Positions 30,001 through 33,000 of a stretch of 64,000 bases of DNA are shown in pieces (within the stretch, counting starts at the first letter, position 1; the number at the start of each line of letters is the position of its first letter). Source of the stretch: Escherichia coli (GTDB lineage Bacteria; Pseudomonadota; Gammaproteobacteria; Enterobacterales; Enterobacteriaceae). The position numbers were made by a program. The stretch lies in assembly GCF_017348835.2 (NCBI RefSeq), contig NZ_CP071375.1; one strand, given 5' to 3'.

Positions 30001-33000
30001 TATAACCCAGAACGGGCGTCAGAAATGACGCCTTTTTTATTGCAGAAAAGCGAGAGGTAATTATGCGTAAACTTTATGCCGCCATTTTGTCCGCAGCCAT
30101 TTGTCTGGCCGTATCCGGTGCGCCTGCATGGGCGTCTGAACATCAGTCCACGCTGAGCGCGGGGTATCTTCATGTCTCGACGAACGTTCCCGGCAGCGAT
30201 GATCTGAACGGGATTAACGTGAAATACCGTTATGAGTTTACGGACACACTGGGGATGGTGACGTCTTTCAGCTATGCAGGAGACAAGAATCGCCAGCTGA
30301 CCCATTACAGCGATACCCGCTGGCATGAAGATTCCGTTCGTAACCGCTGGTTCAGCGTGATGGCGGGGCCCTCTGTGCGCGTGAATGAATGGTTCAGTGC
30401 GTATGCGATGGCGGGCGTGGCTTACAGCCGTGTGTCGACTTTTTCCGGGGATTATCTCCGCGTAACTGACAACAAGGGGAAAACGCATGATGTGCTGACC
30501 GGAAGTGATGACGGTCGCCACAGCAACACGTCTCTGGCGTGGGGGGCTGGCGTGCAGTTTAACCCGACCGAATCCGTGGCCATTGATATTGCTTATGAAG
30601 GCTCCGGCAGTGGCGACTGGCGCACTGACGGTTTCATCGTGGGTGTCGGTTATAAGTTCTGATTAGCCAGGTAACACAGTGTTATGACAGCCCGCCGGTT
30701 CAGGCGGGCTTTTTTGTGGGGTGAATATGGCAGTAAAGATTTCAGGTGTACTGAAAGACGGCACAGGAAAACCGGTAGAGAACTGCACCATTCAACTGAA
30801 AGCCAGACGGACCAGCAGCACGGTGGTGGTGAACACGGTGGCCTCTGAAAATCCGGATGAAGCCGGTCGTTACAGCATGGACGTTGAGTACGGTCAGTAC
30901 AGCGTCATTCTGTTGGTGGAGGGCTTCCCGCCGTCACATGCCGGGACCATCACCGTGTATGAAGATTCTCAACCCGGTACGCTGAATGATTTTCTCGGTG
31001 CCATGTCGGAGGATGACGTCCGGCCGGAGGCACTGCGTCGTTTTGAACTGATGGTGGAAGAAGCGGCGCGTCACGCAGAGGAGGCGAAGAAGAATGCCGG
31101 AGAGGCGGAGACATCAGCGAGGAATGCCGGCATATCAGCCAGTCAGGCAGAAGCGAGCGCGGCAAATGCTGACACTTCAGCAGGGGATGCATCGGAGTCA
31201 GCCCGGCAGGCGGCAGAAAGTGCAGCCGCTGCAAAGCAGTCAGAGGAGGCGTCCTCGTCCTCGGCCTCTGCGGCCGCTCAAAAAGCCAGTGAGTCATCAC
31301 AAAGTGCAGCAGAAGCTGAATTGTCAAGAAAGACGGCAGAAAGTGCAGCCGGTAATGCAGCCAGGGATGCAACGACCGCAGCAGAAAAAGCCCGGGAGTC
31401 AGCAGAAAGCGCACAGTCAGCGGAACAAAGCAGGATAGCGGCGGAAGAGGCCGTAAACCGAATCCCCACCGTGGTGGGGCCACCCGGACCAAAGGGAGAA
31501 CCGGGGCCCGCGGGTCCTCAGGGGCCGAAGGGAGATAAAGGAGAGCGTGGTGACACCGGCCCTGTCGGGGCAACCGGCGAACGGGGACCGGGAGGAGATA
31601 CAGGTCCGGCAGGTCCGCAGGGGCCGAAAGGCGACAGGGGAGAGCGGGGAGAGACCGGGCTGACAGGAAGTACAGGTCCACAGGGTCCAAAGGGAGACAC
31701 CGGGGCAGCAGGCCCGGCAGGCCCACAGGGACCGAAAGGAGAAACAGGTGTGGCTGGCCCGGTAGGGGCAACCGGACCTCAGGGGCCGAAGGGCGACCCG
31801 GGGGAGACGCAAATACGGTTCCGTATGGGGCCGGGAAACATTATTGAGACAAACAGCAATGGCTGGTTCCCGGATACAGATGGCGCACTCATCACCGGAC
31901 TGACCTTTCTTGACCCCAAAGATGCCACACGGGTTCAGGGTTTTTTTCAGCATTTGCAGGTCAGGTTTGGCGACGGGCCGTGGCAGGATGTTAAGGGACT
32001 GGATGAAGTGGGCAGTGATACAGGCAGAACAGGAGAATGACATGAATATTTTGAGAAAGCTTATGGAGCGTCTGTGTGGTTGCGGAAAGCATGATGACTG
32101 TGAACACGGGCAGTCGCTTACAGCACAGCTGCGACTGGGACCGGCAGACATTCTGGAGTCAGATGAGAATGGCATTATCCCGGAGCAGGACAGGGTAATC
32201 ACGCAGGTGGTGATACTGGATGCGGATAAAAAGCAGATACAGTGCGTGGTAAGACCGCTGCAAATCCTGCGTGCTGACGGGACGTGGGAAAATGTTGGCG
32301 GGATGAAATAGCCCGACAGCTTCACAAAAACCGGAGTCCGGCTCCGGTTTTTTGTTGGTTAGATGTAATCTGACAGATACCTGTATAAATAACCGGTAAC
32401 TGTCAGGTCAGAGCTAATACAGGTAATTATATTATAATCACGAGCGCTTAGATGTATTAATGCCATGCTCTGCAAGATGCTGCATCAGACGCTGAGCCAC
32501 ATCAGGCAGAGGTCTTGATTGTTCATTTTGTACCGGCGGCGTTGGCGCAGGCCAGTTAGGTGCCGGAGGAATATGTTCAGCCATATTCCGGGCTGGTTGA
32601 ATGCCATGCTCTGCAAGATGCTGCATCAGACGCTGAGCCACATCAGGCAGAGGTCTTGATTGTTCATTTTGTACCGGCGGCGTTGGCGCAGGCCAGTTAG
32701 GTGCCGGAGGAATATGTTCAGCCATATTCCGGGCTGGTTGAATGCCATGCTCTGCAAGATGCTGCACCAGACGCTGAGCCACATCAGGCAGAGGTCTTGA
32801 TTGTTCATTTTGTACTGGCGGCGTTGGCGCAGGCCAGTTAGGTGCCGGAGGAATATGTTCAGCCATATTCCGGGCTGGTTGAATGCCATGCTCTGCAAGA
32901 TGCTGCACTAGGCGTTTGGCCACATCAGGTAGAGGCCGATGTAAAGCGTTTTTTTCTATACTTGACTGAGTATAAGATGTGGAACGTTGAAGTCCTGATT

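Follow-up and report, generated by a model that had tools for sequence, protein, structure and literature searches.

What protein follows the side tail fibre of a lambdoid Escherichia coli prophage when the gene directly downstream does not resemble tfa, and what might it do for the phage? The locus that raises this question lies in a 64,000-nucleotide (nt) stretch of E. coli contig NZ_CP071375.1 (assembly GCF_017348835.2), referred to here as the window, where two closely packed genes on the + strand, at 30727-32311, encode a side tail fibre and then a protein of 89 amino acids (aa), which we call the companion. Both proteins were already known, the fibre as EPclA and the 89-aa open reading frame (ORF) as ORF68 of the Shiga toxin 2 (Stx2) phage Sp5 and as a product annotated by the NCBI Prokaryotic Genome Annotation Pipeline (PGAP). 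Our comparison demonstrates that the companion is a real protein under strong purifying selection, and identifies it as a free-standing paralogue of the fibre's own tip, with a 27-residue extension in place of the shaft. Fibre and companion probably make up a tail-fibre module of two genes in a lambdoid E. coli prophage, in which the companion would be a dispensable accessory that modulates adsorption.

The initial annotation had described the 89-aa ORF as an uncharacterised Cys/His-rich protein standing in place of a Tfa chaperone. The first part of this description had to be abandoned, because residues 28-89 form a Phage_fiber_C domain (PF06820; gathering score 25 bits), here termed PfC-B, which is related to the C-terminal domain of the fibre (PfC-A) at 35% identity (E 8e-14). 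The whole protein also matches the phrog_576 'tail fiber' family (E 3.6e-60). In E. coli PE164, where the stretch is 100% identical, PGAP calls exactly the same two ORFs, naming the fibre 'prophage tail fiber N-terminal domain-containing protein' and the companion 'phage tail fiber C-terminal domain-containing protein'. The dissimilarity to Tfa, on the other hand, was confirmed: BLASTP returned no alignment between the companion and lambda Tfa at E<=100, and the companion had no match to Caudo_TAP (PF02413) at E<=1, whereas lambda Tfa itself matches this family at 2.8e-43. Judged by these searches, the companion does not belong to the Tfa family, and it did not turn out to be a known chaperone of that family. 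The gene order J-lom-stf-companion is the same as in lambda, and the companion occupies the Tfa-like position directly 3' of the fibre gene. However, it is less than half as long as lambda Tfa (194 aa) and shares no similarity with it, and the window fibre and lambda Stf differ in everything beyond residue ~117. A defence-protein identity of the companion was also rejected (0 PADLOC families at E<=1).

The fibre is an EPclA collagen-like side tail fibre, as all four elements of that architecture are matched (Table 1). It keeps the N-terminus of lambda Stf (orf-401), with 89% identity over residues 1-117 in addition to the phage_tail_N match, and this part aligns to the solved lambda 'Tail fiber protein' (PDB 9e7m_Ta) at E 2e-51. 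The gpStfN of Ur-lambda assembles into a dodecameric collar that holds four fibre trimers at the gpV-gpM junction (PMC12617516). The collagen-like repeats score 62.2 bits with Pfam Collagen, against a cut-off of 27.2, and have Pro at position X in 18 of the 37 triplets. The initial annotation had correctly recognized the lambda-type N-terminus, about 100 residues of collagen repeats (111 by our count) and the short C-terminal domain behind them, now identified as Phage_fiber_C; its picture of an N-terminus/collagen chimera holds, but it left out the coiled-coil segment of ~130 aa (aa ~118-247) between the two. Repeat length was compared among 78 related viral loci; the usual number is 37 triplets, and 27, 30, 31 and 36 also occur in fibres of intact length. 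EPclB fibres are longer (616-682 aa), with two or three collagen blocks.

The biochemistry of EPclA has been established with recombinant protein, which is a dumbbell-shaped trimer (Ghosh et al. 2012, PMC3368898). The Ala-rich region is a coiled coil, whereas the Gly-X-Y stretch forms a true collagen triple helix with a melting temperature of 42 °C, as found by circular dichroism and electron microscopy, also for a construct of the collagen and C-terminal domains (Col-PfC). In the same study, size-exclusion chromatography with multi-angle laser light scattering identified PfC as a trimerisation domain; it can renucleate the collagen helix and has little helix by circular dichroism (PMC3368898). 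The EPclA of enterohaemorrhagic E. coli (EHEC; e.g. ECs2717 / Z3074) has the same domain order, the same 437-aa length and the same 111-aa collagen as the window fibre, and O157:H7 genome copies share ~97% DNA identity with the window over the whole region. The window fibre differs from EHEC EPclA by allelic substitutions only; it sits in a tccP2-carrying prophage beside tRNA-Ser and hyaA.

We then examined the companion as a gene of its own, using the 78 intact copies found in 80 IMG/VR loci plus the window (the 78 loci referred to throughout). Every copy is exactly 89 codons long, and every locus has the junction GGAGAATGAC followed immediately by ATG, so that the companion starts 1 nt after the fibre stop. 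The ORF 5' of the companion ends in PfC-A in 77 loci, and the remaining locus holds just six upstream codons; the last 14 residues of the fibre are identical in 73/78. Selection was estimated as the Nei-Gojobori ratio of nonsynonymous to synonymous polymorphism (pN/pS) from 55 distinct DNA alleles. This ratio was 0.155 for the whole companion ORF, 0.26 for its N-terminal extension and 0.074 for PfC-B (at pS 0.13), compared with 0.27 for the fibre's own PfC. Because of the difference between the two PfC domains, we regard the companion as more constrained than the fibre tip.

A diverged locus (L083) extends this comparison. Its PfC-ended fibre has no collagen, and the fibre tip is 41% identical to the window PfC-A; the companion there is a 79-aa PfC-B protein, 57% identical, which overlaps the fibre end by 14 nt and has its own AGGAGG site. 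A terminator hairpin follows it, comparable to that at 32326..32352 in the window. The L083 contig also carries NleG and SopA-like genes, and no near match to the locus was found among complete E. coli genomes. Since the pair persists here without collagen, the pairing of fibre tip and companion outlasts replacement of the shaft. Taken together, the identities of both proteins, their pairing, the independent translation of the companion and the selection acting on it are firm.

Published work on relatives of this pair provides functional information. Mondal et al. (2016, PMC5155283) deleted unknown genes of the Stx2 phage Sp5 and found the collagen-like fibre ORF67 to be essential, while ORF68 (89 aa, PfC only) was classed as non-essential on K-12; no frameshift signal was detected, and the authors proposed that the small ORF may serve as a reservoir for fibre variation. 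Sp5 ORF68 and the phi24B protein 'gp59' match the companion in length and in their single domain and, like it, come immediately after a collagen-like fibre that ends in PfC; phage-borne copies share at least 80%, mostly 90-99%, amino-acid identity with the companion. The partner fibre is different: a longer EPclB on a podovirus tail in Sp5 and phi24B, but EPclA on a lambda-like siphovirus tail here. In a preprint on phi24B (10.64898/2026.04.10.717836), the lateral fibre gp61 is resolved over its N-terminal 141 residues only, its C-terminal knob gave no confident AlphaFold model, and the function of the fibre is left open by the authors. The supplementary proteome of purified phi24B virions lists two companion-only peptides, VITQVVILDADKK and ADGTWENIGGMK; the authors assigned them to 'gp59' or else to gp61-gp59 frameshift fusions, hypothetical products included in the search database. 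The presence of these peptides in the list indicates that the companion is made and co-purifies with virions.

How could such a module work? In the reading we favour, the lambda-Stf-type collar domain would fix the fibre trimer to the tail, and the Ala-rich coiled coil together with the 37-triplet collagen triple helix would make up the shaft. The PfC-A knob would trimerise, nucleate folding of the collagen and presumably form the end that contacts the host. PfC-B may form a small trimer of its own, whose synthesis the coupled stop-start junction would tie to that of the fibre. This trimer would be carried by the virion, with the fibre tip as its most plausible site, where it would be dispensable and would modulate adsorption rather than fibre folding. 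A Tfa-like folding role is disfavoured because EPclA folds and trimerises without the companion and because the Sp5 homologue is dispensable on K-12.

Several points weigh against this proposal. The position of the companion at the fibre tip is deduced rather than directly seen, and an outermost adhesin is expected to be the more variable partner, yet PfC-B is the more conserved one. The counts of both phi24B peptides appear low (3 per row, on a tentative reading of the column), and the authors' text omits the companion from the structural components that it discusses (10.64898/2026.04.10.717836). Structure prediction gave little help: AlphaFold2 yielded no usable model of the companion monomer (predicted local distance difference test score, pLDDT, 53; 17-row alignment), and the homotrimer joined by Gly-Ser linkers reached a pLDDT of 36.7 with a concatenated alignment. 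The only consistent feature was an N-terminal helix (aa 3-14, low confidence) followed by about six beta-strands, a pattern that agrees with the little helix seen in PfC by circular dichroism (PMC3368898). No solved PfC structure was found in the PDB by sequence or profile search.

Small proteins encoded directly downstream of a fibre gene and located at the fibre tip are known from the gp38-type adhesins of T-even phages, and Tfa of the Mu/P2 type is reported to remain there as well. Like the companion, they are small, lie directly after the fibre gene and may stay on the distal end; however, they are unrelated in sequence to their fibres, whereas the companion is a paralogue of its fibre's tip. 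In a more specific and distinctly tentative idea, the PfC-B trimer would dock end-on to the PfC-A knob, giving an A3B3 tip, and would itself be the true distal element that binds the host or interacts with O-antigen, a 'paralogue cap' that would have arisen by duplication of the trimerisation domain of the fibre. The companion might instead be a Tfa analogue, that is, an assembly chaperone serving as a template copy of the knob and released once the tip has folded and trimerised. Its place directly after the fibre gene with a coupled start, its constant pairing with a PfC-ended fibre, and the failure of an isolated PfC construct to be expressed unless fused to thioredoxin (PMC3368898) fit such a role, which we nevertheless consider unlikely, as full-length EPclA, Col-PfC and PfC all trimerise without the companion, Col-PfC refolds reversibly (PMC3368898), the Sp5 fibre ORF67 is essential while ORF68 is not (PMC5155283), and neither sequence comparison nor Pfam links the companion to Caudo_TAP.

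The suggestion of Mondal et al. (2016) that the small gene is a recombination reservoir, a spare tip cassette for varying the fibre C-terminus, draws on the paralogy itself and gains from two rare chimeras, one joining collagen directly to PfC-B (P0063) and the other combining the N-terminal half of the companion with the C-terminal half of PfC-A (P0120). These chimeras, however, are clusters of 1 to 4 sequences, and the fibre ends in PfC-A rather than PfC-B in 77/78 loci. A silent cassette would need neither the Shine-Dalgarno site and ATG that are invariant in 78/78 loci nor a conserved N-terminal extension; the pN/pS of 0.074 reflects selection on the protein itself, and companion peptides are listed in the phi24B virion proteome, so this explanation appears quite improbable. 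Fusion of the 89-aa ORF to the fibre as an alternative C-terminus, by +1 frameshifting or transcriptional slippage, is more doubtful still. Relative to the fibre, the companion is read in the +1 frame, and in 71/73 loci this frame has no stop over the 46 codons that precede the ATG. In addition, the window has a T7 run at 31941-31947 (+) in the PfC-A coding region within this open overlap, one database protein (P0245) is exactly such a fusion, and the phi24B authors included gp61-gp59 fusion sequences in their mass-spectrometry search database (10.64898/2026.04.10.717836). Against this, the T-run is not conserved (T7 in 27, T8 in 4, T6 in 8, T5 in 1 and T3 in 33 of 73 loci), the ATG of the small ORF in L083 is preceded by an in-frame stop one codon upstream, and a fusion at the T7 site would cut PfC-A in mid-domain. 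Mondal et al. report no frameshift signal (PMC5155283), and no junction peptide appears in the part of the phi24B supplement covered here. A programmed fusion was rejected on the absence of the T-run from 33/73 loci together with the L083 stop before the ATG.

A view of the companion as a new small Cys/His-rich protein that binds metal and has no kinship with known fibre proteins can hardly be maintained, and the lack of kinship is refuted. The window allele has C12, C14, H17, C20 and H22 within 11 residues, but two thirds of the protein is the PF06820 domain, and the label applies only in part across the 78 loci: C12, C14 and H17 are invariant, whereas position 20 is Arg in 44, Cys in 33 and Ser in 1, and position 22 is His in 61 and Asn in 17. 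The homologue of Citrobacter rodentium has Arg instead of H17, a diverged homologue (P0129) retains only HCLFGCDK from the motif, and the motif of P0066 is degenerate as well. The variation at C20 and H22 leaves no conserved set of four metal ligands, and a zinc-knuckle-like site was rejected. Two elements of the extension are conserved instead, a short amphipathic helix with the pattern M-x-I-[LF]-[KR]-K-[LI] and, after it, L-x-G-C-x-K; by inference only, the three extension segments of a trimer could form a helical bundle with a cysteine ring, either as interchain disulfides or as a metal site.

Table 1 Features of the fibre/companion locus (positions in the window)
Feature	Position	Strand	Basis or remarks
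Terminator-like hairpin, then T-run	30689..30710	+	8-pair stem, 7 GC pairs, TTTTTTG tail; lom/fibre interval
Side tail fibre gene, 437 aa, EPclA architecture PfN-PCoil-Col-PfC	30727..32040	+	ATG 30727, TGA 32038-32040
N-terminal tail-attachment ('collar') domain, aa 1-133	30727..31125	+	Pfam phage_tail_N PF08400, E 6.3e-69
Antisense ORF, 273 aa	30950..31771	-	Artefact; overlaps PCoil and collagen coding regions
Ala/Ser/Glu-rich low-complexity segment (PCoil), aa ~118-247	31078..31467	+	A 44, S 24, E 19 of 130 residues
Antisense ORF, 302 aa	31417..32325	-	Artefact
Collagen-like domain, 37 uninterrupted Gly-X-Y triplets, aa 251-361	31477..31809	+	111 residues, 70% GC
Fibre C-terminal domain PfC-A (Phage_fiber_C), aa 363-426	31813..32004	+	PF06820 E 1.7e-34, 118.4 bits
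Conserved C-terminal tail of fibre	32005..32037	+	Last codons hold the companion's Shine-Dalgarno site
Shine-Dalgarno GGAG	32032..32035	+	6 nt 5' of companion ATG, within last fibre codons
Companion gene, 89 aa, stand-alone Phage_fiber_C protein	32042..32311	+	ATG 32042
N-terminal extension of companion, aa 1-27	32042..32122	+	Short amphipathic helix MNILRKLMERL, then LCGCGKHDDCEHG
PfC-B domain of companion, aa 28-89	32123..32308	+	PF06820 E 5.5e-36, 123.2 bits
Terminator-like hairpin closing the fibre/companion unit	32326..32352	+	Comparable hairpin in L083

The long antisense ORFs in Table 1 had been put down to the repeat region as artefacts, and our data agree with this. Neither the 273-aa nor the 302-aa ORF matches a Pfam family, and both overlie sense-strand coding regions with strong, independently supported domains. 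Stop codons are missing entirely from two of the three antisense frames in the collagen segment (70% GC) and likewise from one such frame in the PCoil segment; antisense ORFs are therefore expected from composition here.

The fibre/companion pair is the end of a lambda-like tail cluster (J, lom), after which come tccP2, an EspV fragment, tRNA-Ser and hyaA. In phage Ayreon, a terminator is annotated at the position equivalent to the hairpin ahead of the fibre gene. The TccP2/EspF(U)-type effector gene (32438-33190, -; Pfam EspF repeat, E 2.3e-110) contains a 141-bp tandem repeat in 3.4 copies, and its length is 753 nt here compared with 894 nt in the otherwise identical PE164 region, so the number of repeats varies between strains. 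Where PGAP places an incomplete 'secretion protein EspV' pseudogene in PE164, the window has a 132-aa ORF (33636-34034, -) with no Pfam match. It is adjoined by a tRNA-Ser gene (anticodon tga; 34123-34210, -) directly before hyaA, and this tRNA-Ser/hyaA region is probably the prophage end and integration site. Further upstream on the + strand, the genes for portal (12843-14435), major capsid (16372-17400) and tape measure (20738-23317) are intact (530, 342 and 859 aa, respectively), whereas the annotation of PE164, the closest genome, gives them as frameshifted pseudogenes; either the prophage in the window is less decayed than that of PE164, or the PE164 assembly has indel errors. A Cu/Zn superoxide dismutase gene (sodC; ~25859-26386, -, with coordinates transferred from the PE164 annotation) lies on the opposite strand inside the tail cluster, between a tail assembly gene and J.

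The distribution of the companion family is narrow. Database searches found it only in E. coli, Escherichia albertii, C. rodentium and the L083 contig. A phmmer search of 1.84 billion cluster representatives gave only 57 matches, nearly all of them fragments or chimeras of one Escherichia protein, and a scan of 100,044 species-representative genomes turned up nothing beyond E. albertii and one contig of 725 bp under the name Xanthomonas pisi. This contig (L087, NZ_JPLE01000138.1) encodes an 89-aa protein at 96% identity and is most likely E. coli or phage contamination of the Xanthomonas assembly. Within its range the family is common: 296 phage records have a companion at >=80% amino-acid identity (278 at >=90%), including short-tailed and long-tailed Stx phages, and among 5,426 complete E. 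coli genomes 4,895 contain similar sequence, in 692 of them over the entire region.

Some relatives have rearranged domains. A 565-aa protein from metagenome run SRR17035117 (P0149; L084, 3505-5202) has four tandem PfC-like repeats of ~77 aa, then Gly-X-Y repeats and a further C-terminal region. It shares with PfC the motif VV[IV]LDAD...LQ[IV]RRADGTW, aligns over the full PfC length and, like the window fibre, has Gly-X-Y repeats; unlike in that fibre, its PfC-like units are internal, tandem and N-terminal to the collagen, which shows that such units can be internal beads besides C-terminal knobs. Many other database ORFs (P0030, P0065, P0088, P0099 and P0010 among them) consist of a PfC-B segment joined to pieces of unrelated prophage genes, namely CII, the J C-terminus, Lom, NleG or tape measure. 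They look like deletion junctions of decaying prophages, and the region around the companion gene seems to be a frequent breakpoint.

The significance of this locus lies in where the fibres occur. Most lambdoid and Stx-converting prophages of EHEC and enteropathogenic E. coli carry them, and they therefore bear on how phages carrying Shiga toxin and effector genes find new hosts. If the companion does cap the PfC-A knob as its paralogue, this could account for the elusive receptor role of the conserved lateral fibres and for the failure of cryo-electron microscopy and AlphaFold to resolve the knob.

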